Shown here: positions 3,101 to 52,726 of the stretch, piece after piece
Layout of the letters: each line of letters opens with the position of its first letter
How positions within the stretch are numbered: position 1 is the stretch's first letter
DNA from: Phoronis australis
Lineage: Eukaryota > Animalia > Phoronida
Length of the DNA stretch: 64,000 bases
NCBI GenBank assembly: GCA_002633005.1
Contig: NMRA01000015.1
Location: 1,236,218-1,300,217 of the forward strand
Reading direction: 5' to 3'
The notes under the pieces: model-generated
The model's input: only the letters and a program-made list of their open reading frames with translations
What the model was told of the DNA's origin: nothing
Database searches by the model: none
Translations under genes and position numbers: made by a program

Positions 3101-6100
3101 TGACACATGCGCTTATACAAGTTTGTCAGTGATATTAATTAGATAAATACAGAGTGTCCTCAACTAGATCAACAAGCATCCAATTAACATCATATCCAAA
3201 CCATATTAGTAGCACAGTCCACAACAATGTACAGTGCCCTTTTATGAACTAGGAGAACAATTTACCGTATTAATATGCAATTGGACTTGTCATCAACAAA
3301 TAAACCAACTCACTGTTTGGCACTCGTCACACAGAACTGTACTGATGAGATATCCACCAAAGATACTGTCCACAAATGTGTGCTTGGCCTGACGTCCATA
3401 CTCTGCAGAAAGAATAAATGTGTTATTAGGCCAGAAAAAGTATATCAACATTGCTTAAAAACAAAAAGAAAAACTCATGTTTAACTCAGGCATTCTTTTT
3501 CATCAAAAAAAAATATTTTTAAAGCCTTAAATTAAAATGCATTCTAGTTCAATTTTATTGAAGCCTGTCAACTCAGCTACGATCACTGCCAATGAATATT
3601 CATGAAATTTGAAAAACAAATCGCAACTCATCTAACACGTGTCCTAATCACCATGAATTCAAGCAATAAAAAACTGTTGGTTCTGCCAAACCTAGAAATC
3701 ACTCAAAATCCTGCACCATGTTTAAAACAGTTAAAAAAGTTGCAAAGTTCACAGTGCCCTCGCGTGCCTCAGTTGCAAAGTTCACAGTGGAAAGCTCAAG
3801 TGTCTCATGTGCAAACAGTTGTCGATGCTCTTTCTCGTGTCCACCACTAACCAGAAAATCTTGAAAGAACTTAATGTGCAAAATTTCTGTACCTGCCTTT
3901 AGATAGATAAATTATGCTTAAATGCATTTTCTACTGATGCCAGTCAGTCATTTCATGTCAAGGTCGTTCATCTTATGTCAAGGTCGTTCATTCTATGACA
4001 AGGTCACTCATTTTATTTGAAGGTCGTTATTTTATGCAAAGATCGTTCTTTTCTCAAGTCCTGTGGAAACCTTGGGTACACAATTTTGTCTGTCAAATAT
4101 GAACTCCGAGTCCAATTTACCGACAGCCCCTGGACCCTGCAATTTCCACAATATGTCCTTGAAAAAATTACATCACATATGTACCCCTGATCTTTAGCTT
4201 CTAATTACATCACATACGTACCCCTGATCTTTAGCTTCTTATCTTCATCTAGGTTACGAACAGAGTCTCCATCTTTCACCTCAAAATGTGTCATGATAGC
4301 ATCCTTGACACGCTACAAGAGCACAATTGGAAAACAAGCTGTATAAAAATTGCTAATAAAAATGTATTCAATACGTTAACATGGAATGGATTCATATTTA
4401 ATGGCAAGACACAATTTGACACAAAGATCAACAAGAGCAACGCAGGGCGTTGAAATGCGCCCACGAATGCATCGTAAATGGTGTGCTTCCAGGGTTATTT
4501 ATTTGTATCATAAAAATGGCCACTAGATGGCGCAAAAACGTACAATCCATCAAAAAACTGGAACAAGCCATATTTCATAAAAATGAAACTTCAGAAAAAC
4601 AAAGGAAAACAGAATAAAATGAAATTGCCACTTAAGTGGGGCACAGTGTCCGTTGGATCCGTCTGAATGTCGTTGAAATCTGTTGTTATCTTCATTACAA
4701 ATACACTCACTAAATTTAATAAAGATCCTGCAGTGGGTTTAGGACATATAGCTATGGGCACAAAACAAAACAAAACTACCACTAGGAGGAGCAACAGTAG
4801 TCAATCACCATCATCAAACGTCGTCCCCTTTACACTGAGAACATATATGCCATTTTTTAAAATCATCCCTAGAATGATTTGGTTGATGAAGGGTGGACGC
4901 CAAAAACAAGATTCGAAAACAGCAAAAATGGCCACCAGGTGGCGGAAAATACCTTGATTCCATCCAAAAACAGGAGTATAGCGTCACCTCACCAATAGAT
5001 GCCTATATTCAAAATTTTATGAAAATCTGTTGAGGACCTTTGAACATATAGAGTTAAACGTAAAAAACTGAAATTGCCATTAGGGGGCAAACCAGCAGTC
5101 AGATCCGTCCGAAACTTGTCGTCGTTCATTGCCTACACCATATGAATATGCTTTCTAAATTTAGTGAAGAACCTGCGAACAGTTTAGGAGATATAAGCAT
5201 AGGCGCAAAAAAAACTGCGACTAAGAGGCGCCACAGTAGTTGAATTCGTTGGAAAATCATCATCAGCAGTCCACTTCACAGTATGAATGTACATGCCAAT
5301 TTTCATAACCATTCTTCGAGTGGTTTGGTTGATAGAGGTGGACGCAAAAAAACAGACTCGAAAACAGTAAACATGGCCACTAGGTGGCGCAAACTACATC
5401 GCATCCATCGGAAAACAGGAGAACAACGTCATCTCACTAATACGTGCCTACATATCGAATTTTATGAAAATCCGTTAAAGACTTTTGAAGATACAAAGAT
5501 AAACGTAAAATACTAAAATTGCCACTAGGGGGCACACCAGTAGTCGGATCCGTCCGAAAGTCGTCGTCACCTGTTGTCAACATCATATAAATACACTTCC
5601 TAAATTTACTAATGATCGCTCAAACGGTTTAGGAGATACAGGCATAAGTGCAAAAAAACAAAACTGCCACTAGGAGGCACCACAGAAGTGCGAATCGTCG
5701 GAAAATCCCCGTCAACCGTCCACTTCATAGTAAGAACATACATGCCAATTTTCACAATCATCCTTTAAGTGGTTTGGTTGATAGAGGGGTGGACGCAAAA
5801 AACAGACTCTAAAACACTAAAAATGGCCACTAGGTGGCGCAAACTACGTTGAACTCAACCGAAAACAGCAGGAAGGAACACATGTGCAAAATTTCATGAA
5901 CATACGTCAAGGCATTTTGGAGATAGAGCAGCGGACGCCCGACGGACGGAGATGACGGCATAATGCGTCCACATATAAATATGTGGGCACATAAAAATGT
6001 CACAGGGAAATCTCAGTTGATACAGCTTTTTAGTGATTTTTTGCAAGTTTGTAAGTCATGTCAACTTTGCTTTTGTCACATGTGCGAGAGACAAAATATT

Positions 6101-9100
6101 TGTCAATGGTTACAATGAATTTCATAATTTCACAACTTGTGAAGAAAGAACCACCACTTGATGCAGCATATCATAACAAACACAAACACTACTTGGCTCA
6201 CATTTAGCCACAGAATTTTCAAAATCACACAGAATATCTCAGAATTTCAGGCACGCAAGTTTTGTTACAGAATGTCATTATTCTGTGCATTAAGTGACCT
6301 GTACAACATCCCTGCCCTAGACACACAGCTCAGAATAACACTTGTGAACACTATTCACCCAAGAAAATTCAACAGTTTCAAAAAAAATCCAGCTTTAAAC
6401 TTAGATGTTTGACAGAAGAAAAGTCATGAACCACTATTTCAATACAATGCAGTCAGTACCTTAACCTCTTCCATTTTTATCCCGTCCATTAGTTGACGCA
6501 GTAACTCGTGACTGTCCTGTTGTTGGAAACCTTTAAACCGAGGAGCCCTGAAATTATACCAAAATCTTCCACATGTATCAGAGTAAGCGTGTGTCATCCT
6601 ACGGCTAATAGACATTTGGAACATGCGACACATGCAATACAAATACAACTAGGAAGCCACACCCTTATAATGTTGATGTGCAATGTGGCACAAGCAAGCC
6701 CTGCCCACAAAATAGAGATTGACAAGGTTGACAATTACTTATAATTAGGACAATGTTAACTGCTAGGTATCCTGGGCACAGAATAAAAGTTGACAGTACC
6801 AACCATGTTCAAGTAATGGGATTTAAAGTCGCCCTCCTAACACTCGGCATGACTATGAAAAAGGTTAGAAGTAGTGATTATTGGCAACATCAGAAGATTA
6901 AAGCGTTAAATGACATCAACATCTGTGACAATGTTCACTCTGACTCAAGGTATTAATGTCAGACCCAGTTACAATACAAGATATAAGTAACCACACAAAA
7001 TACAGTGTCCCTGTCATGACTAGTTCTGTTAACAGCAAACGTGGCTAGTAATAGCTATTAGGGTGGCAAAATTCTATTACAGAATAGCTAAATTTACAGT
7101 TAATTTCCCTTCATTCTTTGTCATCAGGGGAGACTACTCTGAAAATGAATTCGACTTCTGCCCAGCTGTCACGACAGAAAATTCCAGGTCATTTGGCTGG
7201 TGCTATAGTCGAGTGAGCACATTTGGTGAAAAGCAACAAAATATGTGTCACTCCTTTGCAAACCCTTCAATTGTAGTGTTTGCACCACAAATATCTGTAT
7301 GAGTGGACACTGAATTCAACTGAGAACTCACTTTTTGCACACTTGGGCAAACAACTGGCTTGGGTTAATAATGCCAGTGGATGATGCCTTCATTGAGCGT
7401 AGGAAGAACATCAGTTGATGAGTCATCTGACCACCTGGGGCTAACGGAAGATCAATTAAGGGCAACTGGAATACAAAAAACTCAAATTAATGTATAAATC
7501 TACCCATAATGTCCAAATCACCACTGACAGTCTCTCAAACAGTTTTGGTGATTCCCTCGCAGTAACTAGTCTCTCTGTCATGGCTGATTTCACCCAATTC
7601 TTTTGAAACATATTGCATTTGTACTTAAACATCACTAATTACCAACCCAGCAGACCCAGGACTTCAATAGGAGATTGCACATAACTTACTACTTGGCTAA
7701 GAGACTTTCACTGAGAAAAAAGCTGAAGCGCTCAAGCACTCGCTAGATTTTGTTACCAGCAAAATGAGTCATCATTACTAGCATTAGCCCTTTTGCAGCT
7801 GTCACTACGTATAATTCCAATAATCAGTTCATGCTCCGTCTACACCCATACTATTACTGCAACAAAACATTCTGAAAATATGTCACAGAGTGTGGTGCAC
7901 TGTTTACACAACAACACTATGCAAACTCTAAACAACAGATAAACAGTCTCAACAACACTACATACCTCAACTCGGCCATTCTGTTGATGTCCCTCTGCAT
8001 GCCTCAAAACTCGGCCCAGGATTTCAGAACGTCCTTCTTTACAGTAGTTAGCCAATAACTTCTCAAGGCCACTAGTGTGACTCAGCACCTGTAATGGTCA
8101 CGTTAACAAGTCATAAAGATCTGTGAGGTACACCATCATTTGAATTCATATTAGGGTGATGATAACTGATCATCATTCATAGACTCTTGTGATCATTTGT
8201 CACTGCTCAGTGATGAGAAATCAACAGAAATTATCACAATTGATGATAAACCTTANCAGTGTACTGAACACAACCTCAAAATGGCATAACGGGGGGCAGT
8301 GTAGTAAAACTACTAAATGAGGGTGGTAAATCGGAATCGTGTTTCAAGACATCTGTGTAACAATCTACAGGCACCACTAAACAATGCCAAGTGAATAATA
8401 AATCAATAGCTTTCATTCAAGAAAAAATATGAACAGTTAAAACTGGACAGTTTTTATACCGTGAAAACATGGCTGCGAAGCCGTAAAATGTGTTTGAGCC
8501 TATAACTTTAGAAAAACGCAATATTTTGAGGAAATATTTTACAGCTGTTTATAGATCTCATAGGACTACCTATGTGCCAAATTTGGTGAAAATCGGCTGA
8601 CCCCCACCTTGCCGCTCATGGCTGGTGCTCTCGTGGACTAGTACTTAATATGAATCCCCAATAACTATTATTATAAATAATAACATGTCCTCCAGACGCC
8701 ACCCTCTTCAGTCCTGCAATTACTGATGACGGTATTGACATTTGTTCCGTAGCCACGGCTAATAAGCCACCAGGTAATGTCTATTAGGGCAAGTCATTTA
8801 CAGGGGCCACGGACTTTGAGAACCAGTTTGATGTCTGTTATTCAGTATATAAAACTGGTTCTCAAAAAATGCGGGACCCCTGAAAGTGACATTACAATCC
8901 ATTGGGTAGTTATTCAACTGCCTGGTAACCAACTCAACTGCTATCTAAAATTTTTTTTTTGTTTTTTGCTGGTTTAACAACCACTGAGCCCAATCTACAT
9001 TAAACAAGATACCACTGCCCCTCAAGTCAACAGTTTATTAATATTTCAGGAATAGTCACTTACAGGGGGTCCTGGATTTTGAGAACCAGTTTGATACCCG

Positions 9101-16580: not shown

Positions 16581-19430
16581 ACGCTTACGTGTTAAGTCCA
16601 TGGTTGAGTCAGTCAAAAAGCATTGAATTTAAACTAAAATCATTTACAAAATATTATTTGATTGCTTATGAATGTTGATACGTCCCTGACGTCACATATT
16701 TTTTATTGCATTTGTCGATTTAAATAAAGGAAAATTCCGTCAGTACATCCACAAATTAAGTTTAGTGGAAATATTCAGATCCCGACTTGTAGACTTTTCT
16801 CAGTTAGAATTCTTCTCTCGTGCACCATATTCCCTTCTCACGGACACAGTCCATATTGGGCCCGGGACTTTCCAGTCTCAAGGACATATTTCTGCCTGTG
16901 CTTGCGTATGGACCAACCCCGCCGCCCCTGCCGCGCGATGCCAGGCCCCTCTCATAAGGCACGGCGGAAAGTCGTTCATCTCTTGGAGTATTTTCGTTAT
17001 CGTTTCATTTTTTTAATTCTTTGAATATCGTAAAACTCAATAAAATAACCTTTCCCTCGTTATTTAGTTACTAGGCATGATGTCTGGTTTTTCAAATATC
17101 ATCGCTGATTCATGAATTTATTGTTTACGAGATCACGTCACTGAGATAAGAGGACAACCGCAACGTTTTTGAGTGCAAAAGTGAGTTTCAATATTTAAAC
17201 ATGTGATTTGTCATTGTTTCCATTTTTATAGTTTAAAAGTATTATTTGTCAGTGAAATGACTACGTTTTCCATGGAAAAATGACAGGAATGTGTATCGTG
17301 ACAAGTATAGAGATTTTTCACAGTTAATTCGTACGTACAGATTTTATGTCAAGTCAAGCGAATTGGCCCAACAGAACTGAAGGGATGGCGGGCGAATGAA
17401 TTAGTAGTTATTGTGCGCGGAAGCAGCGTTGGTCCGTCCCCAGCTGAAGAAATCGGAGGTCCGCGAAGCGCGATCAAGGAGAGGAATAGACTGTGTGAGA
17501 GATCTATTTTGTGCGTGGGCAGACCCGAGCAGCGCGCGGGCAGGGATAAGGCGGGTTCCACTTTTCAATGTTTGACCACCGATATTACGTTTGGTCTCGA
17601 CCAAGCGCCAGGACAGCTAGAACGTTTACACACTCAAACATTAGACATCCCAACATACTTTCTCTAACTGACCAGCGCTGGGTGTTCCTAAACATTTTCT
17701 TCAGCACTATATTACAAGAGAATACACGAAACAGAAAAATAGTAGGCCCCACCAGTGCTGGTGCACAACTCTGCATAGTTGGTCGATGGTTAGGTTAACT
17801 GAAATGTCGCTCAAATTGTTTCAAGATCATGATTAATGGCGGTTGTTAAGCAAAAGTTACTTCAGATTTGATTTGGGGGAACAAAGCACTACGTGATACC
17901 TACCTATTTACATAGTGAAGTCGAAAAAAAGAACTCGTTTGCAGGGAACGTCCATGAAAAGTTACCATTTCGTCGGTTTTTATTTTTTTTGTTTCATGCA
18001 CTCCGGCATTCTTTTGTGGGCAGGGGGATAATTCCAAACACTTAGCCATTTTTTGAGGGATTCTTATATAGCTGGATTTTTAACTCATTAAATCTGTGTC
18101 TGTGAAAAAGGTATGCATAATTAAGAACATCTTTTGCGAGGAAGTTTTATGAATCTAATCTTTTATGTAGTAAAAGTTGTATAGACTCGAACTTTCCGGA
18201 AAATGAACCTTTTCGTTAGGAAAAACAGGAAAAGGCCCCATTTCGTGAGTAATTTTATCAGTAAAGGCACCCTTTAGTATGGAAACTGGGCGTGAAAAGT
18301 CACCCTGGCTAATTCTGAGCGACACGTCCTATATACCTCCTCTATGAGATAACCTCCGGGATTGGTTAGGATGTGCTAAAAACTCGGGTGGATATTTTGT
18401 CCCCTTGGGTATTTTTCGGGTCGGTATTTTGGCATGTGTCCAATGGGGTTTATAACTGTCCATGAAACTAGGACTATTCCCATGTTGTTGAAAAAGGTAA
18501 TTCTTCACAAGCCATCGTCAGGTTTCTTAGGTCGGCTGCTCGCTCCAGTTTTGTACCATGAGCAGATAAGTCGTTTGATTTCCACTGGTTAAGATGGAAC
18601 CTTAGTCCGATGGTTGATATGGTAATGAATTTAGAAATGCTGAAAACACGTTTATCTGATGCTGCTTATACTTAAACAAAAATACAGGAATGAAAAATAA
18701 AATTTCCCTTGTAGGCTATATGCTCTGAAGAGATTTTACCGTATTTTCATTAATATCCATGTGTGCAGTCTTGATCTCAGTTTTTAAACACCTGTTCCAA
18801 TACTAACAAAATAACAATTAGAATCATAAATTTCAATAGGCAATACTGCCAACACTACAGAGCTCAATACAAACTGAATTACAGAGCACTTGTCCTATAC
18901 ACGAGATAAGCGTACACAGGTGATGACTAAATCATCTCTTGAAATTCAATGACAACAAAAAGTATAAGGTGTCATGTACATTAACGTCACCAAAAAAGAA
19001 ATACACCATCGTAAGTGTCAGGTAAGAAATCCAAAGTGTGCTATGCAAAAACCTCATGGTACGCTCAAGTATTGTTAAAAGCTTTTGTTGAAGAGTGTTT
19101 GAAATTTTAGAACACCAAATAAGTTAAGTAGACTGGTAAAGCACACATAAGGCAGAGCAGACTACACTAAGGCTTATAATAGATCACTTTTGCGTTGGCA
19201 GCACTTAACCTAGATTCGCCAGCCAATCAGGGGACTGCCTTTACAAGTTACACTCAAACAAGGTCAGAAGTTCATAGTAAAGTGCACAAGTGTAACAGCG
19301 ATATCCGAAGCAGAGACAAGTGAAGGCATACGCTTAGAACTGAAGCAAAAAGCAAACTGTGTTCTTGCGTGAGGTATTTTGGTCAAGAATTTTCAGTGAC
19401 GAGCTATCGGGTGCAAAAACAGAATACAAA

Positions 19431-19722
19431 ATGTGGGGAAGTGGCAGGGCTCGGACTTCCAATTGGTCAGACAATGAAGTGAATGCATTAGTGGACACTT
19501 ATTACGAACTTCGAGACGTGATGCGAAGTGTGAAACATGGTGGTGATCCTACAGTGTCCCTTCAAAAGAAAGAGGCTGCGTGGCAACAGATTTGTTCAGC
19601 CGTGTACGAGAGTGGCGATGGACATGTGGTGAGAAACACTCACCAAGTGAAGAAGAAATGGGAAAACATTGTGTTTAGACACAAAACTATAATCATCAAT
19701 TACAAGAGAAAATTTAAAAACG
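19431..19722 (+). CDS. Myb/SANT-like DNA-binding domain protein (MSANTD/NAIF1-like), first coding exon
   Basis: RTSNWSDNEVNALVD...KKEAAWQQICSAV...RNTHQVKKKWENI is the Myb_DNA-bind_5-type three-Trp pattern; AAAATG start; strong donor G|gtaagt (phase 1). Confidence 0.85.
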
Positions 19723-20580
19723 GTAAGTAGGGTTATCGGACCTTATAGTATAACATTTCAACACTAGAGGGTTCTAGTGTAGTGTTGCTGTTGTAGGGAT
19801 TACCAACTGAACTCGATCGGAAGCGTACAAAGTAATTTTTCATGCAGTCAATTTGCACAAGGTAATTCATTACCTAGCTGTGTGCGCGGGTAACGGTTAC
19901 TATGACTGATGTGATCTAACGTGCTCGTAACTCAGTACAGCACGTACACTTCGTCTACCTTGAGCAGAAATTGGAAGAAGTGCTGCATAGCTCAGTGGGT
20001 CCATGGTATGTAGCCTACGCTGATACTTTTGTCTGCCATCTGTTGTAACCACCCTGTTACCTGACCCTGATCTAAAACGATGACGTAGTAACAGTTCTTA
20101 GCAAGCCGAGAAATCACTTTTAATTGAACAACAATTGAAGAATAAGTTGCGACCAATTTTGTCAAGGTAAATGTAGGCCTAAGTGGTCTGGATCATTTTT
20201 TACGGAAGGTGGCGTTATAGCAGCATTCTTCGTAAGTTTAGTTAAAATCGGAGATCGTAGTAACGTCTTTGTTAAAATTATGCTTGTCCAACACACTTAA
20301 CTGTTTTCCATAGGCATAGTCACAGTGCCACACAGAACCTATCGTCGGCACCGATCGAAATCTATGTTACACAATGACTTTTTGCTAAAACAGCTTTGAA
20401 TCTGCACAATTAGGCCTATCTGTTCATGATTTCCATCACTAATAGTCTTATCAGTTAGGTACCCCTTAGTGAGAACGTACCGGAGAGTTCAGACCTGGGG
20501 GAAATGCATAGAAAAATGTTATTCGGGGTGTACTCGACTATTTTTGTCAAGGGTTGCAGGTCGGAAATTAGGACACCCAA

Positions 20581-26049: not shown

Positions 26050-26620
26050 CTCTCTGGTTCCCTGCGGTGTGTCCGAACACGCAGGTATCATTCCATAGCA
26101 TGCGTTTCATCACTGGTTGATGTAAACTCGGCAGTCATTGGTTAGATGAAAGAAAATGGCGGACTATGAACGGTTCAGTTTTAGCCTTGTCAGTGGCGTG
26201 ACACTGAGCAAATATTTCATTTCTGTAGTAGGCCTAATACGGTTTAATAGCCGCGTGCTTGAAGCACATACTCACTGTGCATATACAACTGCGCACACAT
26301 CTAGTCGATTTAACCGAAGTGTTATTCACACTGTATGAATACAGGAAAGCAACGTAAACAAAAGTCAGCGACAGTAGAAAAATGCACTCCGAAAAGGCAC
26401 AACCACAATTTTCTGATTTAAATTTCTTGAACGATGAATTAAGCACCGATTTGTCTGTATAACGGACCACAAACTATATCCACATTTACACTTCCTTCAT
26501 CAGTCATGCCAATTTGTTTAAAGCGTTACCAATCAGAAACACCGGTGTAAAAAAATCCCGAGGAAAATTAAATGATACCTGCGTGTTCACTACCACCTAC
26601 ACGCGAGGAACCAGCGAGTA
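26050..26620. mobile_element. MITE with imperfect TIRs
   Basis: ctctggttcc...gaacacgcaggtatcatt versus aatgatacctgcgtgttc...ggaaccagcgag. Confidence 0.6.
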
Positions 26621-29600
26621 ATCAGAGAAAGGGAGACAAGTCTCCTAGCGAAATCCCATTGGACGGCCACTGGCGGACATTGTTGTTTCATGTACCGTAG
26701 AAACGTCTAGCTGGCGTATGTGCAATAAACAAGTATGGCAAGATATGACAGCTCCGATCGGTAAAAAAGCAACTATATATGCTTTTTGCCCACGGGTGCA
26801 GTTAATTGAAAATTCGTGACTTACACTTTTTTCGCTTCCTCACCGATTAAGATAGGTGATGTTCACGATTGAAACAAAGGATGTTTTTTCGTGAAACCGT
26901 TGCCAGTCAACCAGTACTGGGTGATTTGAACTTAATGTCTTTACTGTTCCCTGCATTTGATCCCTTATATAGAAAATTATCGTAAATGGTTTGCATGATT
27001 TTGGGAACTACTGATTAGTTTATTCTATGCCCATTGATGCTTCTTTCTTTCGGTTTTTCTAGTCTTAATACATTCAAATCTAAAAGATAATTATATTTAC
27101 TATTACTGTTTATTTACCAATTTTAATATTATTTTATCATCTATTTGTTTTATTTATACTTTATTACTTATTTATTATTATTTATTTATTTTTTATTTAT
27201 TCGGTATTACTTATATAAATTATTTCTTGTGATCCCATACAGTCAACATCCTGGCTGTCGTTCGTCAATAATCTATATTACATGGTAGTAATGAACACCC
27301 CTAAAACATATTTTTAAGGTGCAGTAGTGGGTGCATTGTGTAACTCCTGTTTACAAATCATTGACAAGCACTGGTTGTTTTGTATACGCAGTTTAAGCTC
27401 ACTAAATTGATTAAAATTTGGACATAACTGCAGCATTTTTCTGAATCCGCAATATTTTCCTTGTCTGTCAATTATTTTCAAAGCGATTTTACAGATTCTG
27501 GTGAAACTTCACAGTAGGGCTGGGATTCGCCAGCACCACTTCATTTTTGGACGAATTTAAGTGCTGTCCTATCTCGTTTTCAACAAAATAGTGTCTGTCC
27601 ATAATTATTGTCAAAATGGCTTAACAGTATTTAACGATACATGACACAGAGACATATATCGGAGATGCTTCGCTTTTTGTGCAGTTTGCCATAAGGAGTG
27701 TTGAAGGAATTGTTCTTTTAAAGGAATCAAATAGATGTTGCAATGCTGTGCAGTTACCGTCGAATAAAAGTATAAAATAGTAAAACTAGTAAAACTAAAA
27801 TGACGAGCGTCGGTACTAAAATATATTAAAATATCCCCACGTATCGAGCGATGCGCTCTTTGTCAACGGTGTGCTACAGTCTGCAGCACACCCTGAGTTT
27901 TACTAGTTTTACTATTTTATATTCTTTTAAAGGCATATAGAGCCCTACATCAGTGGGTACTTTGATAGTTTGCGTATTACCTTGGAAACTTTGTTACGTT
28001 CAGTAACGATTCCGTTTGTTTAAATTTTGTTTTGACACTGGTCTTAAAACATCAGGACAGGAAATAAGGCGTTCTTATGTTATTTATTTTAAAGTTGGCC
28101 ATTTTTACCTGTCGATGTAAGCTTAATAATTATGCCTTTAACTAGCTGCTGATAGTTGATTTAATAAAATGTGAATGGTTTAAGAGAGCTGGAAAGCATA
28201 GTAATTCAGCTACTGAAATGTACTATTCAATAGGCATCTTGGCAGTTTTATGGCGACATGCAAGGCAGGTTTACTGGACTGCAAGCAAGAATTCCACCTC
28301 TTGCTGATTTTCAACCCCCTACCCCTGTTGCCCCCAGTTTCATTCACCACATCCCACCCTAATTGGCTTCCCATTTCAGATCCTATCAGTCACGGATGCC
28401 GGGGGTCCAGTGCCCGGTTGCATGCAACAGTCCCAAATAACGACTCCACTGTGTTCCCAAATTCTACTGCGTATATTTTGTGAGTTTTCTACCTTGAATT
28501 CTCAATACTATTGAAGATAAATGGGGATCTTTTCATGCAGCACCCCTAATTTAAGGACTAAGTCCCTAATTTAAATATTTTGACTAAATTAAGGGCTCCG
28601 TTTTTAGTTATATTATTAGAACACGTTATAAGTCTAAATAGGAGCTCGTAGTAGAGTTAAAATGATAAATATAACAACTATTAATAAAGAACGAAACAAA
28701 TACGCAAAGGACTTAAGCAACTCAGTTGAGCACAGGCAGATCCAGGGAATCAAAGGGGTCAGGACTCTCCATTTTCCCTTGCTTTTAGTGATATCAAATC
28801 TAGAATTTTCAAATTGTTGACTTGGAACTTTTAAAAAAATCATGGATCTGCCCCTGTTGAGTCACTCATTGGGACTGTTTCATTTAACTGGGTACAGACT
28901 CCGCTGATTGAATGTAGAATGTCGTAAGGTGTGAGTTTTTGAAACAAAGATCTGGACCCGTGCTTTGGATGGCGTAAGACGGCAGTTTTTGAACTTTGGC
29001 TAAGGAAACATTTGATGGTTGGGGGGAGGAGAGTCTGTTAATTTTTCAATTTTATTTTAAAACAAAGTTTGAGAGTTGAAAGTTTTGGTTGAAGGGCGCC
29101 CCCCCCCTCCGTTTTTGCTCCTACCTCTTCTTCAGCAGACTTGTCTTATGTTTATTACTTGGCTGACCCCCCTGGACAAAATCCTACAGGTTCTGTACAT
29201 GCCCACCCTCCAATNTTTTGTAGTAGGCCTAATACGGTTTAATAGCCGCGTGCTTGAAGCACATACTCACTGTACATGTACAACTGCGCACACATCTGGT
29301 CGATTTAACCGAAGTGTTATTCACACTGTATGAATACAGGAAAGCAACGTAAACAAAAGTCAGCGACAGTAGAAAAATGCACTCCGAAAAGGCACAACCG
29401 CAATTTTCTGATTTAAAGTTCTTGAGCGATAAATTAAGCACCGATTTGTCTGTATAACAGACCACAAACTATATCCACATGTACACTTCCTCCATCAGTT
29501 ATGCCAATTTGTTTATGTAAAGCGTTACCTGTTGAGAATTTGACCAGCCAATCAGAAACACCGGTGTAAAAAAATCCCGAGGAAATTTAAATGATACCTG

Positions 29601-31966
29601 CGTGTTTACTACCACACCTCCACGCGAGGAACCAGGGAGTAATCAGAGAAAGGGAGACAAGTGCAATAAACAAGTATGGCAAGATATGACAGCTCCGATC
29701 GGTAAAAAAGCATGCTTTTTGCCCACGGATGCAGTTAATTGAAAATTCGTGACTTACGCTTTTTTCGCTTCCTCACCGATTAAGATAGGTGATGTTCACG
29801 ATTGAAACAAAGGATTTCTTTTCGTGAAACCGTTGCCAGTCAACCAACTGGGTGATTTGAACTTAATGTCTTTACTGTTCCCTGCATTTGATCCTTTATA
29901 TAGAAAATTAACGTAAATGGTTTGCATGATTTTGGGAACTACTGATTAGTTTATGCTATGCCCATTGATGCTTCTAACTACTTTCTTTAGTTTTTTCTAG
30001 TCTTAATACATTCAAATCTAAAAGATAATTATATTTACTATTACTGTTTATTTACCAATTTTAATATTATTTTATTATCTATTTGTTTTATCTATACTTT
30101 ATTACTTATTCATTATTATTTTTATTTTTTATTCATTCGCTATTACGTATATAAATTATTTCTTGTGATCCCATACAGTCAACATCCTGGCTGTCGTTCG
30201 TCAATAATCTATATTACATGATAGTAATGAACACCCCTAAAACATATTGTTTAAGGTGCAGTAGTGGGTGCAGTAGTGGGTGCATTGTGTTGCTCCTGTT
30301 TACAAATCATTGACAAGCACTGGGATTCGCCAGCACCACTTCATTTTTTGGACGAATTTAGTGCTGTCCTATCTCGTTTTCAACAAAATAGTGCTTGTCC
30401 ATAATTATTGTCAAAATGGCTTAACAGTATTTAACGAAACATGACACAGAGACATATATCGGAGATGCTTCGCTTTTTGTGCAGTTTGCCATAGGGAGTG
30501 TTGAAGGAATTGTTCTTTTAAAGGAATCAAATAGATGTTGCAACGCTGTGCAGTTACCGTCGAATAAAAATATAAAATAGTAAAACTAGTAAAACTAAAA
30601 TGACGAGCGTCGGTACTAAAATATATTAAAATATCCCCACGTATCCAGCGATGCGCTCTTTGTTTTACTAGTTTTAATAGTTTATATTCTTTTAAAGGCA
30701 TATATAGCCCTACATCAGTGGGTACTTTGATAGCTTGCGTATTACCTTGGAAACTCTGTTACGTTCAGTAACGATTTCGTTTGTTTAAATTTTGTTTTGA
30801 CACTGGTCTTAAAACTTCAGGAGAGGAAATAAGGCGTTCTTATGTTATTTACTTTAAAGTTGGCCATTTTTACCTGTCGATGTAAGCTTAATAATTATGC
30901 CTTTAACTAGCTGCTGATAGTCGATTTAATAAAATGTGAATGGAAAGCATCGTAATTCAGTTACTGAAATGTACTATTCGATAGGCATCTTGGCAGTTTT
31001 ATGGCGGCATGCAAGGCAAGTTGACTGGACTGCAAGCAAGAATTCCACCTCTTGCTGGTTTTCAACCCCTTACCCCTGTTGCTCCCAGTTTCATTCACCA
31101 CATCCCACCCTAATTGGCTTTCCATTTCAGATCCTATCAGTCACGGATGCCGGGGGTCCAGTGCCCGGTTGCATGCAACAGTCCCAAATAACGACTCCAC
31201 TATGTTCCCAAATTCTACTGCGTATATTTTGTGAGTTTTCTACCTTGAATTCTCAATACTATGGAAGATAAATGGGGGATCTTTTCATGCAGCGCCCCTA
31301 ATTTAAGGACTAAGTCCCTAATTTAAATATTTTGACTAAATTAAAGGCTTCGTTTTTAGTTATATTATTAGAACACGTTATAAGTCTAAATAGGAGCTCG
31401 TAGTAGAGATAAAATGATAAATATAACAACTGTTAATAACGAAGGAAACAAATACGCAAAGGACTTAAGCAACTCAGTTGAGCACAGGCAGATCCAGGGA
31501 ATCAAAGGGGCCAGGACCCTCCATTTTCCCTTGCTTTTAGTGATATCAAATCTAGAATTTTCAAATTGTTGACTTGGAACTTTTAAAAAAATCATGGATC
31601 TGCCCCTGTTGAGTCACTCATTGGGACTGTTTCATTTAACTGGGTACAGACTCCGCTGATTGAATGTAGAATGTCGTAAGGTGTGAGTTTTTGAAACAAA
31701 GATCTGGACCCGTGCTTTGGATGGCGTAAGACGGCAGTTTTTGAACTTAGGCTAAGGAAACATTTGATGGTTGGGGGGAGGAGAGTCTGTTAATTTTTCA
31801 ATTTTATTTTAAAACAAAGTTTGAGAGTTGAAAGTTTTGGTTGAAGGGCGCCCCCCCCCTCCGTTTTTGCTCCTACCTCTTCTTCAGCAGACTTGTCTTA
31901 TGTTTATTACTTGGCTGACCCCCCTGGACAAAATCCTACAGGTTCTGTACATGCCCACCCTCCAAT
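26224..31966 (+). repeat. Near-identical tandem duplication (26224-29214 vs 29219-31966) across a single N; probably two alleles
   Basis: Colinear copies differing by SNPs and indels; the junction is exactly the N at 29215. Confidence 0.9.
28731..28856. mobile_element. Small MITE (CA.GGCAGATCC TIR), duplicated at ~31483-31608
   Basis: cacaggcagatcc...ggatctgcccctg with 5-bp TSD TTGAG. Confidence 0.65.
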
Positions 31967-40663: not shown

Positions 40664-41163
40664 CGTGAGATGTAATACAAAGTACGCATTCCACGCGATG
40701 CTACTGTGTGAGCGATTTCCTGTGGTTGGTAAGCGTTATATACCTTTAATTACATAGGGGAAGGAAACAACACAGTGACTCGTGAGCCGCTGTGATTAGA
40801 TTTCGACGTCAGCTGACACTCCAATTGGAAAAGCACTTTTTAGGCACACAATTACCCGATATTTACCGCGATAACGAAGAGTACATATGCATAAATACAC
40901 GAACACAAAATAATGTAGGCATTCAATCCTTGGTCTTCGCGGATCGGAACGTACCTTTGTCTACTCAGGGGAAAGAAACAATACAATGACTCGGTTCGTG
41001 AACACTCTGATTAGACCACGACATCTGGCAACAGCTGCATAAATGCGAAATCAATGAAAACTCGGTAAAGTTCCTAAGCCACCTTTGTCGATCAACAATG
41101 TAATCGTGCCGACAAGACGAGCGCCATACGAGAATTAATGATATCGATCGCTTGGTCCAATAT

Positions 41164-42562
41164 CACGGGTGAGAAACAACATGACCGCCGGTCCTCTAAA
41201 CAGGACCTCCGGGGATCAAATGGGACCGCCGCACCAGAAAATGGGACTGACGCACCCAAAAACATGACCGCCCCACCACAAAACAGGACCGCCGGGGACT
41301 GAGTAGTTAAGGCCTTTGTGTGATACTGCGGGTTATGACGTAACCGGTCAGATAGCTGTGTAAAGACTATCGCCAAAATAAAGCTTGACAGCCTTGCGTT
41401 ATTGAGCTCCGTTACATCCCCGACATTGCCCACAGCCCGGGTAGTTCTGCTCGTCACCTCGTCGTGGAACTTACATCAACATGTAGTAGAGCGCGCGACC
41501 GATGCAGGCGCATGCAAAATCTAGGCGTCAACCAACACTCACCTTGCAGTTTGCAACCGCTTGAGTGAAAAACAATCTAATGAACTGTTGTAATAATAAG
41601 TGACATGTGCACGCGCCATTTCCTCAGAAAAATTTTGAGACATCTTTCGAAAGATGATGACAACTTGGCGGCAACAAGGTTTGTTATGAAATTCGGTTTG
41701 CTGGTATTAAAGTACTGAAAACTTATAACGAAATGAAACCAGTTTCGATAATTTGTTGTGCCAGGTACGCAACCTTGTAGAAGGACAGTTGACTGAAGAA
41801 TCGGGGGAAAAGGAACCGGCCAATGTAAGCCGACTTAAGAGAACGCAGAATAACGACAGAACGACAATTTCTCTCGAGCGCCGATGAAATAATTTAGTTT
41901 ACTCAAGGAAGAGTGTCGTTAAAAAAAATTCGCCGGGTAAAGATTTTACATGTTCAGTTTTTTACCCACATCGGCGCAAAGCTGTACATTTAATGTACAG
42001 CTTTGCCGCACAAAGGCAGCTAGTATGATGATGCTTCACCCGAGAACCAGAACGTCCGTTTTTTTACTTGACTAACTTTAAACGTCAAATTGGAGAAAAT
42101 GATTTTCATTTTGTTCTAAAACTTATGCAGTGGATAAAATTATAATTATTTAGCTCAAAAGCGTACAACGAGGTTGTTTTGTGTTAGATTTATTAAATGT
42201 TGACCTTTCAACTGTTTATAAGTCACATACCGCAGCCGGGAGCCTGGTGATGAGTAAAACTCAAAAGCGCCGCGTATTACAAAGCGAAGTGTCCTTTGTT
42301 GCTCACAAAAGATTTCGGTGGATTAATCGGCACAAGACCTGCATATGCATACGTATATAGCCCCATTGTATGATCTGTGTAGGCCTAACGGTAATAAATC
42401 TTAGCCTGTTAGTTATTGCGGTTTTAGTCCCCGGCGGTCCTGTTTTGTGGTGGGGCGGTCATGTTTTTGGGTGCGTCAGTCCCATTTTCTGGTGCGGCGG
42501 TCCCATTTGATCCCCGGAGGTCCTGTTTAGAGGACCGGCGGTCATGTTGTTTCTCACCCGTG
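41164..42562. mobile_element. Young non-autonomous DNA transposon with CAC...GTG ends, ~135-bp apparently perfect TIRs and 5-bp TSD (Transib/CMC-like)
   Basis: CACGGGTGAGAAACAACATGACCGCC... inverted at both ends; AATAT on both flanks; TIR built of 20-22-bp subrepeats. Confidence 0.85.
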
Positions 42563-44036
42563 AATATGGGCCAGAAACTACTTCCTGTGTTAGAATGATG
42601 ACTTCATTACAATACAGGCCAGATTCCGATAAGGTCGGAGCAGCACATGGCGACAACTACCCTTTGGAAGTAGATGAACCAGCCCTAAACAATCAGACAG
42701 AACTTTGTATTGGACTATAAAGTAAAACATTGACCAAATGTTAAACACAAACTGTTCACAGGCACAAAATTTCAAGTGAGTTAAGATGCCTATTGGCGTC
42801 ACAGTTTCACTTACTGAAACAATGGACAATAGTCAGGTGGAAATCTCTTTGTTGTGGCTGTCTTATCAACAGCAGAGCAATTGTGGTAAATCTGTTGTTG
42901 ACCTGTACCTATAGTACTTTCCACACTCAAAAGTTTCTTAAACCACCGTGACAGAAATCTAAGTAAGGGGCAAATTGAGACCAGTTTTAAAATGTTGTAT
43001 TTTTCCATAAGGCAAGACAGCACTCGATTTGGCGACCAATGTGACCTCAGATTATGTTTGGAGACCTGAGAAACATCTCAAGTATTAATGTCAGACATTA
43101 ATTCCCCTAAATTTATTTCAAAGTTCGTGTTGACTTTCAAACTTTAAATTACTAACAGGTTTCCTAGATTTTCACAATTATTCCGTTTATTTTGTGAAAT
43201 CAGTGCATTTGCCACCACAGCAGTCAGCACATGACAAACGCGCTTAAATTGGCGAGCCCTAGTGGATTTTGAAGAATTAACCTTATCGTAAAAATTATAA
43301 AAACGTTTAGGTAAATACAACTATGATCAATAAATCTAAAACGATACCAACACCAGTGAGAAAATAAAATAAAAAGGACATCATTTTTGCACTGTAAACA
43401 AATTGCCCGTTCAGTGAATAATAAAACTTATAAAGACATTTTAAAAGTGAGCGAAAGACGCACTGAAATAAGAAGGGTTTCATCAAAACTTACGATGGTC
43501 CGAACTGGGTTATTGCTGATAAATTTCTTAAAGTTGTGTTAAGTTTGTTAGTCTTCCGACGTCCAGAATTTAGGGACAATTAGACACGAGTTGGCACTAT
43601 AAGTAAAATCTCGCCAATTTAGGACACTATACGGTGGAGAAGTGGTTTTTTTTTGGTTTTTATGAAAGAGAAACCGCACCAACTAAATATTTTAAGTTCT
43701 ATACGATAACCACCATCAGACAATGTTTTAGAATTTGTGGTCACTGACAACAATTTTAGAAATACTTTAATTTAAAAGAATCAATTTTGACAGTTATTTT
43801 TGTCCAAAGCTGGTGAGAATTCATCGTTTTTCTCGCTCGATATCTGTACGTTTACACATTTCTAAAATCATCAATGAAAATAAAATACCCTCTTCAGTTT
43901 TAGATAAGATAAATACCCACGCAGCTCCTGGCCTTCGAGGCATTACAAGAACAACAGTTTAGATACTTACCCTTTACCAATGATCTAGCTGCTTCTGCAT
44001 GTACCAATTTGTCCGACTAGACAAACACATTACATT

Positions 44037-46046: not shown

Positions 46047-47681
46047 TTTTTATGCGCCAACATACCTATATGTGGGTGCATGTTGCCGTCCTATCTGTTT
46101 GGGCGTCCGCTGCAGTATCTCCTAAGCACCTTGTAGGATCTTATTGAAATTTGGCAGGTGTGTTCCTATGTGGCTGACGACAGATGACGAGTTTTGGACC
46201 GACCCGAATACTGCTGTGCACCCTAGTGGCAATTTTAGTCCTTTACGTTGTGCCACTGAATCTTCGAAGTTGCTTCACGCATTTCCATGATATTTGACAA
46301 ATAGGTTTTTAACATAAAGGCGACGATGCCATTTTATTTTCGGACGGATTCGACGAATTTTACGCCACCTTGTGGAGATTTTTGTTATGTTTGTATCCGT
46401 TTTCTAGCCTTCGCCTCTCTATCTGTCATTGATACCGCTCAAAGGATCATTATAAGAATTTTCAGATGTGTTGCTTAGGAGAAGGCGACGACTGAAGTTG
46501 ACTTTTGGACGCTTTTTGCGTATGCGACCGATTCTCCTTAACCCTTTGAAGGAGCTTTGTGAAATTTGAAAGATGCATTCCTGAAGAGCCGTCGAAAAAC
46601 GGTAGCGAGTGTGGAACTGATTAAGATACCACTGTGCTCCCTAGTGGCAAAATGTTTTTTTTACGTTTGCCTCTGTATCTTTTTTTAGAAATGTATTTTC
46701 ATGAAATTAAGCAAATATTAGGTTTCTATTAAGGAGACGACAATGCCTTCCCATTATCGGACAGATTTTGATATTTTCTGCGCCGCCTGGTGGTCATTGT
46801 TTTATGTCTGCGTCCGTTTTCTGGCGTCCGCTTCCCTATTGATGAGATAGATGATAAAGCAATGACTGAAGTTGACTACTGTGTCGTCCCCTATTGGAGA
46901 TTTTGTTTGTTGCGTCTGCAGCCGCCACTCCTTAACCATTTAAAGGAGCTTTGTGAGATTTGAAAGATGTGTTTCTATGGAGACGTCGACAAACAGTAAC
47001 GAGTGTCGAACTGATTCAAATACCACTGTGCCCCCTACCTCTAGCAGCAAAATGTTTTTACGTTTACCTCTATATCTCCGGAGTTCATGAATGTATTTTC
47101 ATGAAATTCGACAAAAAGGTTTGTATTAAGGAGACGACAACGCCTTCTCACTTTCAGATTTGATGTTTTCTGTGCTATTTGATGGCCTCTCTAGCTGCCA
47201 AACCGATCAACGGACGATTATAAAAATTAGCAGTTGTGTTCCTGATGCGAACACCATGTCTGATGTTTATTTTCAAATGTTTTTGACAATTCCGGGGCCT
47301 TTTAGGAGCAAATTTGCTTGTTTGCAGCTACGGCTGTATCTCCTTAACCCTTTGAATGATCCTTGCAAAATTTGGCTGGTGGGCTTGTATAGAGATGGCA
47401 ACTGATAACGATGAGTTTTAAAGCAATCGGACTATAGCTGTGGCCCCTAGTTTCAATTGCTTTTTACGTTCGCCTCTATATCTTAGGAGTTCCTTGGCTT
47501 ATTTTCATGAAATTTGGCAACTAGTTGTGTCTTCCAGAAGCAACACCATCTTCTCAAATCTGATGGGTTTGACGCATTCTGCGCCATCTATTGGCTATTG
47601 TTATGACACTAAAACACCCAGAGAAGCACACCGTTTGCGGTGCTATCATTGGCGCACTTCAACGCTCCGTGCTGCTCTTGT
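46047..47681 (+). mobile_element. Helentron/DINE-1-like element, diverged full-length copy of 4430-5997 in opposite orientation
   Basis: 5' tttttatgcgccaacatacctatatgtgggtgcat; 3' ggcgcacttcaacgctccgtgctgctcttgt matches the reverse complement of 4430-4462; internal monomers with ccctagtggca. Confidence 0.75.
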
Positions 47682-49174
47682 GCGTTATTTGGTCATGCGT
47701 CCTTAGTGAAAATTACTGAAGCGGAGAATACTTGGCAGAAGGACTGCGTGATTACGTCAATTAAAGGGACACATAGCATTTCATTTTACGGAAAATATCA
47801 GCTAAAACTAATTTGGATTTTTTAAAGTTTTCAGGTTGCGGAAAACTAGCTAGAGCTTCCATCTTATACATATTAATTTTGTTGATAAGTCAACGAAAAA
47901 GCACACTTATTTTGAGAGATAAAACTCATTATTTCCCATGTTTGTGCTTCCACATAATTGTTAGTTGTGGGCTCCTGAATATTTAGAGAGTACATTGTGA
48001 TAATCAAGTAAAATGATTAATTGAAGATGTGGGTTGTGTTTTCAACACAAATTTTTTATTGATAAAGCGATGAAGTTAATTAATCGCACGGGTAAAGATA
48101 GGGCTGGTGGAGCATCGGGACGTGCTAACATATACCACTGAGAGAACACCAGGTCGGGGCAACATAGGGCCGGGTGAACGTCTGGACGAGGGAACAGTGA
48201 TTCCGCGTGATATAGGCTCGGGAAACATTCGCTGGGATTAGCGGGGCGGAGGAATAGGACTATGATACAAGGGTCATGGAATAGGACTGTGATACAAGGG
48301 TCATGGAATACGGTTTCGCAACCACACTGGGTATCAGAAAAGATGACAATAAGACAGATACTGTGAAGAGTTGTGACAGTTTCTGGGTAATCTTAACTAA
48401 TTTTCGATGTACTTACAAAACCGTAATGACACTCACCAATTTCTGTTGAAATATACAATGACTGTCTGACATACTTATAAACCACAAGTCGTTGAGGAGG
48501 GTCAAGCTGAAGCACCGGCAGACCAAAGGGTTGAATATATTGAAGCAGGATTTGTTGTGCTAAACACAAGGATGTCTGTGGTCATAATCTAAAATCAAGA
48601 TTAATTTACAGCAAATAGGTTCTTGAACACAAAGAACAGCCCTTCGTGAAAAAGACTTAGTAAGGGGTTTTCGACCCTTTTTGGTGCTATGTCATTTCTG
48701 ATAAAAAAAATGTTAACACCGGCCAGGCGGCCTCCTCGTTAGTTAGGAGAAAAATTCACGTTGTTCAAATTTGTTGGCTGCGATGTCTGGAAACGTGAAA
48801 GTATTCACTCTTCAGCTGAAACTCTGCTCGCTGTCACAAAATATATTCGGTTGCTCGAGACGCGTTGCCTCTCCCCGCTGTCGTCCATAAACTCGTCCCA
48901 AGCTTGCCGATTTAGCAGATTTCGTAAGAAACTGTCGAACTTGAAACAAACTTTTCAGGATTGGCGAAGGTCTAGGTAGAATTGTTTTGTTTCAAACACT
49001 TGAGTGGGTGTTAGCTCAGCGTTCATTTAATATCCGTTAATAGTCGAATCCGGGTTTAGTACCTTTTATGGTATCAGCAAAATCTCCCACATGTATGATA
49101 TTGCTTTCAAAACATAGATTTTGAATCTTGTTATTTTGTGACTATCACGTATCTGCATCATATGTTTATTTTAG

Positions 49175-49905: not shown

Positions 49906-50235
49906 TTTTTATGCGCCCACATATTTATATGTGGACGCATTATGCCGTCATCTCTGTCCGTCCGTCCGTCCGTCCGTCCGTCCGGGCGGCGTCCGGCCGG
50001 CGTCTGGCGTCCGGCGTCGGCTGCTCTATCTCCAAAACCCTTTGACATACGTTCATGAAATTTGGCAGATATGTTTCATTCATGAATGGGACGGCATGTG
50101 CGAACTTTCGGACGGATCCGACAACCGGTGTGCCCCCTAGTGGCAATTTTAGTTTTTTACGCTTACCTTTGTATCTTCAAAAGTCCTGAACGGATTTTCA
50201 TGAAATTTGGTATGTAGGCACCTAGTAGTGAGATG
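49906..50235 (+). mobile_element. 5' part of a third copy of the Helentron/DINE-1-like element, truncated by the N join
   Basis: tttttatgcgcccacatatttatatgtggacgcat + (GTCC)n + gtgccccctagtggca; near-identical to the reverse complement of the 5997 end. Confidence 0.85.
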
Positions 50236-52726
50236 NATGTATGTATGTATATTATTAGAAAACACTAGCTTTCGAACCTTAATGGGCGTGGCTCTTTATC
50301 AGTGTGAAAAAAGTCTTTCGCGCCACTTGTTTTTACACCTCATGAAAAGCCGCACCCACTGCATCCAGGCTCGAAAGCTAGCGCTTTTTGATAATACATA
50401 TTTTAACCGGATTTTAGAGAGTTTTATCTGCTTTTACATTGTCTTTTAGAGATACACACTACTTTAATATTTTCATTTCAGCATAGACTTAAGTAACTCT
50501 CAGTAAAGATATGTTATGACGACGTACCCTATAACAGGTGTTCTCGTCGTTTTTTATTCACGTCTTTCTTAGACAAAAAGTCACGTGTCATTACTTCTAT
50601 CGCTGACAAACCATGTGTTTTAAACAAGAGTATGGGACTGTTTCGTAAAAAGTAACTTAATGATCAGAAATTTGGAGTTGTGTTTCCACTTTGTTATTTC
50701 TGAATAAAGTTTTTGCAATAACCGTTAGCACGTGACACTTAAGCAACTTATCTGATTAACTGGCAATGCTTGGTGTATCCTCCGACACTTAGTTTGTACT
50801 TTGTTGTATGGAACTTAGATAATTTTCCAAGTATGGTTATGTGAAGTGTCCTACGCCATTATGCAACAGAGGAGAAAATTTTCAACCAGGTGAAAAATTC
50901 AGTGTACCAATCTGTCACCTTTTGCTAATAAGTTGGAACGATAATTATCCCTTTGGCGATTGACACAATGAGTAGATTTGTTGCTTATTTTAACAATTAT
51001 CTCTCCCGGCCGGTCGTTTCAACACTCAGAGTTGTCATGATTAAGCCCTCAGTCCCAGTCAGAGACTCATAATTCTCTCTTTGTCAAGCATAAAAATTAA
51101 GACGGTATGCAAAGCAATCACGTGCTTAAAGCCAACACGAATAATGGATTTGGTTTTTTGGTCAACTTTAGACTGTTTTAAACACGAATCTTGCTACGAA
51201 CTGGTTGCACAAAATACACATTACTCAAAGAAGCAAGTTCGCGCGCGAACACTGACCAAAGAGTGTAGTACTACACTCCTTGCCCTGACCAATAGGCGAT
51301 TAGTTCGAGTCCTTGCAATTTTACGAATCTTCCATTTTACACATATTCTCAGTGTTTTTATTATACCTCAGAAATAAAGAAAGTGTTTGTTTTCAGATGC
51401 AAAAACAAAATTTTCCCCTGGGCTACCTTCCCCCCCCATTCGGTGCTACGCGCCTCTACGAGACAAATTGTTGCCCCCCCCCTATGATTATATCCTAGAT
51501 CCGCCACTGAAATAATAAGATATCAACAGCTTCATGACTATTCCCAAACAGCATAGTCTCAGCCTATGCAAATTTGTTGTTTGCAATCCTGAAGATCTAT
51601 TGGCTGCTCAGTTAAAATACAAACTAAATGATAAGATTTGTCACAATTCAATTTCGGACGGTTCAACTTGTTATTAACTGTTTTGGATTCCCTTTGAAGC
51701 CTGCATCGACAACACTAGGCACCACTACAAAATGAAAGAGACACCGTTCTGACACATACTGTGCACGAATGTCGCAGCGCGTCTTCGTTGTTTCCCGTTT
51801 GCTGTTAGGCGGGTTCCCTGTTCTCGGTTGCATGAAACAGTCCTGAATAGGCACTCAACGTACTTTGTTTAATCAACATTTTTTGTGTTTCTGCCATTCC
51901 TTACTCACAGATGTAATCTTTTTCACCCCTTTTATATTGACTGTGAGCTCCCTTTTGACATCTTCTAGTAATATAGCTACAAACTGAGTCATGTTGAGGC
52001 GTCTCATAACAACGATTACCATTTACAGGGTACTTATAATGTCTCAACTGAATCACAAGCATCAAACAGCTGCTTGCCTCAGTTTCAGTAGAACAAACCA
52101 ATCAGTCAGCTCAAGAGGTAGTTGAAACTACAGAGACAACCAAACGCATATTTTCTGATTTGGAATTCTACTGTTTTGAGCAAAGAAACTCGCCAGGTTT
52201 GACGCCGTGATGAGACTTCACATTAACAAACAACTATTATCAAACCCGGAAATTAAGCAGCTTAATTCTTGTTCTGTTTTTGGTTATATTTGTACTTTGT
52301 TTGGGCTGATCCGGTTGTTAAGTGTGTGGACAGAGTTCCAGTAAAGGAAGAAATATCGAACGCAATCATTTACTACGATAGTTCCTTTGGATTCGTCCAT
52401 GCCTTCAATGGTCTTGCCCTACACGCAGTATCGCGTACTAGTCCTCCGTGCATTCAAGTGCACAGTCATGCAACACAGCAAAAGCTAAATGATTTTAGAG
52501 CGACTGATGAATATGTGCACTCGCAATATGGCAGCACATATCGATAATAATGCCGGTTACGACAACACCCCACTCCAACGCCCCCCTCCCCTGCGTTAAT
52601 GAAACTGGTTTGTGATACGAAAAAAGAAATACATGAGTTTGATAGTGTCAACAAATAGCGAAACACCGTGACGGTTATCAAAAATTTCAAAAGAATGACA
52701 GATCAGAAACAACTATGTTGACTAAA

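Follow-up and report, generated by a model that had tools for sequence, protein, structure and literature searches.

A high-copy non-autonomous Helentron-type element with a co-oriented array of CTCF-type motifs in Phoronis australis

The DNA analysed here is a 64,000-nucleotide stretch of Phoronis australis contig NMRA01000015.1 (hereafter the window, in whose coordinates all positions are given). Within one intron (4313-6459) of a spliced, animal-type USP16/45 gene it carries a non-coding element at 4430..5997 on the minus strand with the hallmarks of a HINE, a non-autonomous Helentron. The element (copy 1) takes up 1568 bp of this 2147-bp intron and runs in the same direction as the gene, with its 5′ end at 5997 and its 3′ end at 4430. 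It contains ten ~150-bp monomers arranged as an A-B-C higher-order repeat, and the CTCF-type motifs of these monomers all lie on the plus strand. The first-pass annotation had proposed a Helentron-like mobile element carrying nucleosome-spaced CTCF motifs; the HINE anatomy and high copy number support the assignment of the element, while nucleosome spacing is unsupported, as set out below.

Anatomy of the element and its motif array

Element boundaries and family depth were taken from public reads mapped on the window, the mapped reads being at least 80% alike; runs X1 and X2 are from one DNA sample, possibly that of the window itself, and X6, X7 and X8 are RNA runs of a single study. Loose ends of X1 reads pile up at 4430, where at least 320 distinct junction contigs have a flank agreement of 0.37, meaning unrelated flanks, and at ~5994, where the flanks of 52 junction contigs are likewise unrelated. 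Depth relative to the flank is 9,600-14,700x in the 3′-end bin and 1,300-1,700x in the lowest internal bin, values that are a rough guide and not a copy number, and read depth outside the element is ~10^4-fold lower.

The minus-strand element begins with a terminal T run (5993..5997, read from the sequence) followed by a 10-bp subterminal inverted repeat (subTIR; 5983..5992) that matches the 3′ copy at nine of ten positions, and at all ten in the paralogue at 49906. This subTIR is nested inside an inverted-repeat hairpin (5963..5992; predicted −6.8 kcal/mol with DNA parameters). Further inward lies a (CCGT)n microsatellite remnant (5942..5949), which has seven units in the same paralogue (copy 3) and is longer in other family copies; family reads also show loose ends beside it, at 5941. 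At the other end, the 3′ subTIR (4455..4464) ends 25 bp before the 3′ terminus and is followed by a palindrome (4438..4452; 6-bp stem, 3-nt loop, predicted −5.6 kcal/mol) and an 8-nt tail ending in TT. The palindrome is the sole match of our 3′-end detector within the window. On the element strand each terminus is a T, and the flanking host sequences differ.

The element shows several HINE hallmarks: subTIRs, a 5′ inverted repeat with a microsatellite, a 3′ palindrome, interspersion with defined boundaries and no coding capacity. The same layout of subTIRs, nested 5′ inverted repeat, microsatellite, central repeats, 3′ palindrome and T-flanked ends is described for the DINE-1/HINE class (PMC4067079). 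Four short frames lie within 4430..5997, the longest stop-free frame there has 96 amino acids and none reaches 100, and on frame length a coding function for the element was rejected. A simple satellite or a miniature inverted-repeat transposable element was rejected, since the HINE ends are asymmetric and no target-site duplication was seen. No autonomous Rep-helicase-endonuclease was found among the window's open reading frames scanned with Pfam.

The central higher-order repeat (4823..5868) is built of ~445-450 bp units (Tandem Repeats Finder: 445 bp, 2.3 copies, 79% matches), each made up of the monomers A, B and C; the first-pass annotation had described a three-monomer unit of ~450 bp. 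Outside the motif the three monomers are homologous to one another (z 5.1-8.4; for every pair, none of 500 shuffles scores as high). Scored with a reconstructed JASPAR MA0139.1 matrix (maximum 29.5 bits), the A-type motifs are A1 at 4517..4535 (24.0 bits), A2 at 4929..4947 (25.7 bits; at its column 17, position 4945, 98% of X2 depth is C as the family letter), A3 at 5374..5392 (25.3 bits) and A4 at 5824..5842 (25.3 bits). The B- and C-type motifs on the same strand include B3 at 5519..5537 (23.2 bits), C3 at 5664..5682 (21.9 bits), C1 at 4776..4794 (16.3 bits) and B2 at 5074..5092 (14.0 bits). Two sites have decayed: C2 (5215..5233; 5.0 bits), whose damaging letters at 5219 and 5224 are private, 95-99% of family depth having the consensus letter, and B1 (4625..4645), which a small insertion disrupts in copy 1, 1-2 letters at 4633-4638 being absent from many family reads. 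Both look intact in the family at large. The seven motifs listed in the first-pass annotation were thus all in place and all on the plus strand; its list lacked the site at 4776 and the decayed sites at 5215 and 4625, which bring the array to ten monomers.

Eight sites within 4430-5997 reach at least 14 bits, where 2000 dinucleotide shuffles yield 0.0145 such sites on average and never more than 1, which rules out chance occurrence, and a 20-bit site arises in 1 of 40,000 random 150-bp monomers. The above-chance match, together with substitutions that concentrate in low-information columns, points to these motifs as putative CTCF sites. Sites bound by invertebrate CTCF orthologues are reported in a preprint to have a 3′-terminal C as a typical feature (10.64898/2026.10.19.759930); we take this to be column 17, which is mostly C in the motifs of the element. 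At the place of the vertebrate upstream motif, an A-tract stands instead (by eye).

The start-to-start spacing of the motifs is 108, 151, 153, 145, 141, 159, 145, 145 and 160 bp. The nucleosome core is 147 bp. Between adjacent 19-bp sites only 122-141 bp of DNA is free (89 bp for the first pair), which is below that core if both neighbours are bound, and a nucleosome-spaced array is therefore unsupported. Moreover, monomers of 140-180 bp are normal in motif-free oyster HINEs (PMC7492417). Helical phasing was also considered and rejected, the gaps spanning 10.3-15.2 turns without a constant phase.

The window holds two relatives of the element, both on the plus strand. Copy 2 (46047..47682) is a diverged full-length relative (~65-77% in local matches) with the same termini as copy 1, and 6 of its 10 located monomers score at least 13 bits, with the same polarity as in copy 1. 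Copy 3 (49906..50236; 82-92%) is a 3′-truncated close relative with a single motif of 23.2 bits. It is nested within a different ~155-bp repeat that follows a (TATG)n tract (49758-50389), a copy of which, 93% identical to the other, stands on either side; one N at the junction makes an assembly join possible.

At least ~97% of family RNA reads come from the element's own strand in X6, X7 and X8 (32:1 in X6), the library direction being confirmed by host exon bins with first mates on the plus strand only. RNA reads cross the 3′ boundary into varied flanks and there is no pile-up at a start or end site, so the family RNA looks like read-through of many copies; in X8, one locus gives about a quarter of the reads near 5600. 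If the strand bias is real, transcribed copies are likely co-oriented with transcription, with their motifs facing the promoter. Insertion bias or purging of the A-rich strand is a possible source of this bias.

Motif conservation and motif arrays elsewhere

Column-by-column conservation was computed over the 20 monomers located in copies 1 and 2, whether intact or decayed; one motif-less monomer region of copy 2 was left out. Core columns 4-15 of the motif have a mean modal frequency of 0.82 vs 0.65 over the 126 other columns (P 6e-4) and form the top-conserved 12-column window. Column conservation tracks the information content of the motif (rho 0.61, P 0.005), and the poorly kept motif columns, 2, 12, 16 and 19, are columns that CTCF tolerates. 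Monomers A3, B3 and C3 have 11 of 12 core letters in common and 45-63% identity elsewhere; the corresponding values in copy 2 are 9-11 of 12 and 54-74%. An earlier column test on 17 sites picked by score (rho 0.77) was set aside as circular.

Variation within the family was assessed over 5502-5693. The 37 variable positions listed for family reads include none of the 24 in the cores (P 0.004), and the two longest invariant runs cover both motifs together with the upstream A-tract; a third invariant run, of 19 bp at 5623-5641, is without a motif. Mapped family depth also peaks at the motifs (2.7 million vs 28 thousand between them). The RNA variants at 5601, 5602, 5608 and 5622 look like those of one highly expressed locus, and the test was therefore redone on DNA alone, where none of the 24 core positions is among the 20 polymorphic positions of 192 (P 0.06).

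Among the 21 listed near-fixed differences private to copy 1, 2 fall in cores vs 1.6 expected. Decayed sites number 2 of the ten in copy 1 and 4 of the ten in copy 2. Mutations of copy 1 strike the motif at about the neutral rate, and any constraint is therefore likely to act on the replicating family and not on this insertion. On small numbers, the data fit selection on the replicating lineage with neutral decay after insertion. As proposed in the first-pass annotation, the motif is better conserved than its monomer surroundings, both between monomer classes and between paralogues; the within-family tests are only suggestive (P 0.06-0.09).

Metagenome contigs scanned for two motifs 137-167 bp apart gave at least 117 loci. 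The best match of the element among the 117 listed loci has an E value of 0.028; 44 of these loci have a GC content of at most 0.46, and those with at least two sites form 29 sequence groups, and the HINE-end detector is positive in 5 of the 117. One locus (L019) is a complete 1218-bp HINE unrelated to the element. Its 10-bp subTIR is perfect and lies 25 bp from the end, and six monomers in a row have 23-28 bit sites of the same polarity as in the element. Another (L075) has a HINE 5′ end by eye, and two of its five monomers carry the motif. In L008 and L041, a HINE 3′ end lies beside motif arrays of 163-173 bp whose polarity is opposite; these arrays would be part of the adjoining HINE. Core mismatch is lower than that of the rest in 9 of the 11 arrays tested, marginally in L008 and L035, figures that are biased by including monomers that match the search pattern and in which L063 is poorly segmented. 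The motif is not a general feature of HINEs: L048 has a HINE end with 169-bp monomers without it, and a count of six CTCF right-half 7-mers in the oyster Cg_HINE arrays (PMC7492417) gives just 71 occurrences over 3.35 million characters. A scan of viral sequences gave 4 loci.

Two side observations were made in these loci. L063 is a (TA)n-rich tandem repeat that has degenerated except for the CTCF-type motif, which four of its units keep exactly. At L075:334-1216 and in L005, L008, L033, L041, L057, L072, L077, L091 and L115, CTCF-type motifs lie at or beside YY1-like palindromic boxes, hinting that the two kinds of box may mutate into each other.

A number of points weigh against selection on CTCF-type sites. 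Of the within-family tests, neither that on DNA-only polymorphisms nor those on non-CpG positions (P 0.06) and on unit 2 vs unit 3 (P 0.09) are significant alone, and the first family-read test covers 40 of 47 variant rows; if two of the other seven lay in a core, its P value would rise to 0.05. The monomers are related and not independent, which makes the P values optimistic; they were also cut at the motif, the motif was chosen after being seen, and the scoring matrix was a reconstructed one. The private-mutation test is of the 21 best-supported rows only. The conserved block takes in the A-tract 5′ of the motif, which CTCF leaves unexplained. As for the metagenome loci, these were found via the motif itself and with no control pattern, so that they show the existence of such arrays and not their enrichment; in L075 the core is less conserved than the rest, and in L035 there is next to no difference. 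On balance, constraint on the motif in the family is likely, though short of proof.

Genomic setting and known systems

The USP16/45-like gene flanks the element with a minus-strand exon on either side, both recognised by translation with AG/GT ends. The upstream exon (6460..6547) covers the Gln-box region, and the downstream exon (4222..4312), also covered by RNA reads, has its acceptor 117 bp from the 3′ end of the element. A zf-UBP exon of the same gene (Pfam E 8e-11; homologues named USP45) has protein matches that are mostly insect USP45, at 52-54% over half of the query. The protein search with a 45-aa exon gave no match, and the matches of the atlas search were all <0.9. A 37-bp tandem duplication at 4166-4239 repeats the 3′-terminal part of exon 4222-4312 along with its splice donor and thereby yields another donor-like site, and a 168-bp in-frame tandem duplication (1005-1343) lies inside a long USP16/45 exon (open frame 409-1443).

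Elsewhere in the window, a ~3 kb tandem segmental duplication spans 26221-31966 (91-95% identity), an element at 41163-42563 has perfect 138-bp terminal inverted repeats containing 21-bp subrepeats, and 62-bp repeats with a (TTATTC)n tract at 56872-57090 resemble the end of another HINE-type family. A frame with a Myb/SANT-like domain lies at 19344-19730 on the plus strand, and a single-frame 955-aa leucine-rich repeat protein with a likely membrane anchor and without a close relative (best matches 23-36%) at 37868-40735 on the minus strand. None of the 110 further open reading frames from 10315 onward has a Pfam match.

Among known elements, Cg_HINE of the Pacific oyster resembles the element in its 5′ subTIR with inverted repeat and GTCY-type microsatellite, its central 140-180 bp monomers, its 3′ subTIR with palindrome and its thousands of copies (PMC7492417). 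The element differs in having a three-monomer higher-order repeat with a motif per monomer, whereas the Cg_HINE arrays, by the 7-mer count given above, are without the motif. The DINE-1/HINE class of Thomas et al. 2014 (PMC4067079) has the same overall layout and no coding capacity; the available part of that account does not mention CTCF. The 10-bp subTIR of the element is slightly shorter than the 11-15 bp of published HINEs (PMC4067079, PMC7492417), and its position 25 bp from the 3′ end compares with subTIRs of 12-15 bp at 38-60 bp in mite HINEs (PMC4067079).

Dispersal of CTCF motifs by transposons is proven by chromatin immunoprecipitation (ChIP) for mammalian B2 short interspersed elements (PMC7786948), lamprey hAT-Tip100 (PMC5504073) and zebrafish non-autonomous DNA transposons such as TDR13B (PMC7182764). 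These are vertebrate elements and, in the accessible portions of their descriptions, are not presented as rolling-circle tandem arrays; the element has up to ten co-oriented predicted sites in an invertebrate-type genome. The gypsy insulator, with 12 Su(Hw) sites in a retrotransposon, is likewise a tandem array for a host architectural zinc-finger protein, but it differs in the protein and element class, in being a compact 350-bp array and in its proven function (PMC7168160). Rolling-circle spread of regulatory DNA is described for HSF-1 sites in a C. elegans Helitron (PMC8896005) and for MSL sites in a D. miranda Helitron (PMC7168160), no CTCF motifs being reported in the parts of these sources available. 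The PATC mechanical insulators of C. elegans are also Helitron-derived, but their effect is a matter of DNA mechanics, and the species has no CTCF (bioRxiv 10.64898/2026.08.08.743475), and the HSF-1, MSL and PATC cases are described as spread partly through internal repeats.

The ingredients are thus each known separately, and their combination in a HINE with a CTCF array was not found in the literature covered. A search by title and start of abstract gave no CTCF arrays in Helentron or HINE repeats, most subscription papers, Repbase and Dfam being outside its coverage. By its title, a 2023 paper by Shi et al. in Cell Rep (PMID 36827186) concerns Helitron-marked supersized loops in Xenopus tropicalis sperm and so links Helitrons to chromatin loops.

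Proposed origin and possible role of the array

We propose that this high-copy HINE family keeps same-facing CTCF-type motifs since binding of host CTCF likely helps source copies to stay active, a reading that we consider plausible but put just short of an even chance. An ancestral monomer with one site would have been amplified and have diverged into A, B and C. The Rep-helicase of an autonomous Helentron would then recognise the subTIRs and the 3′ hairpin in trans and copy the whole array to new T-rich sites. Bound CTCF would shield the element from methylation or heterochromatin, or keep its ends accessible, a role for which the gypsy retrotransposon with its Su(Hw) array offers a parallel. 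Once inserted, most copies would decay neutrally. Incidentally, the host would gain a very large supply of ready-made CTCF clusters and might co-opt a few of them.

The insertions might instead be kept for the host, as arrays that serve it as phased insulators or boundaries. In favour of this, the strong sites are clustered and co-oriented, and spread of CTCF binding by transposons is documented in mammals, lamprey and zebrafish. The ~97% one-strand family RNA would also fit, in that transcribed copies are likely orientation-filtered with their motifs facing the promoter, and topologically associating domains with CTCF-like boundary motifs are reported in a squid (review PMC10658182), which leaves room for insulation. 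Against such exaptation, the motifs of copy 1 decay at about the neutral rate and the free DNA between sites is less than one nucleosome. Moreover, two 2026 preprints (10.64898/2026.10.19.760054, 10.64898/2026.10.19.759930) describe an invertebrate CTCF that binds but leaves insulation and loops at baseline, does not stop loop extrusion and, as far as their accessible text goes, gives no autonomous nucleosome phasing. These preprints and the near-neutral decay in copy 1 make an insulator role doubtful, as is a vertebrate-style loop insulator in an invertebrate, and we judge retention for the host to be quite unlikely.

The conserved box could also be constrained by some other factor or process, such as another zinc-finger protein, a YY1-type site or a signal in replication or repeat turnover, and be merely CTCF-like. 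Indeed, the invariant blocks reach into the upstream A-tract, the A-type sites overlap a YY1-like core, in L075 the motif and a YY1-like variant of its palindromic box alternate, and the invariant run at 5623-5641 has no motif at all. Yet the B and C monomers, which are without the YY1-like core, keep the CTCF columns, variation follows the CTCF information profile, and five sites exceed 23 of 29.5 bits; constraint by another factor seems unlikely to us. A neutral passenger, that is, one captured CTCF site multiplied by tandem duplication and rolling-circle copying, would call for no selection, its apparent conservation reflecting low mutability, homogenisation and the way the motif was selected. 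Repeats multiply any word, HINEs capture varied central repeats (PMC4067079, PMC7492417), the within-family tests are borderline, and the B and C cores contain no CpG whereas many flank variants are CpG transitions. The passenger account is nevertheless hard to square with 11 of 12 core letters shared by A, B and C monomers that are 45-63% identical outside the motif, a contrast repeated in copy 2, and homogenisation would not single out the informative columns; we regard it as improbable.

A broader reading is that in several independent invertebrate HINE families the central repeats have evolved to draw host CTCF to every monomer, to the benefit of the element's own propagation. With ~10^4 copies here and at most ten sites in each, one family would account for tens of thousands of motifs, possibly most of those in the genome and nearly all promoter-facing in transcribed regions, and rolling-circle parasites would be the main authors and the sink of the invertebrate CTCF landscape. 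We think this rather unlikely and offer it as speculation.

CTCF orthologues are reported in molluscs and spiralian 3D genomes have barely been studied (PMC10658182). The role of CTCF outside vertebrates is an open question that a single repeat family makes testable, with respect to binding, to insulation and to whether the host or the element benefits. This one family would hold ~10^4-10^5 near-consensus motifs, compared with 27,633 peaks in lamprey CTCF ChIP-seq (PMC5504073), and its insertion polymorphisms are likely natural controls. If binding fails, the family illustrates how motif scans overcount CTCF sites in such genomes. The array suggests a function for the central repeats of HINEs, which are usually treated as satellite-like cargo.

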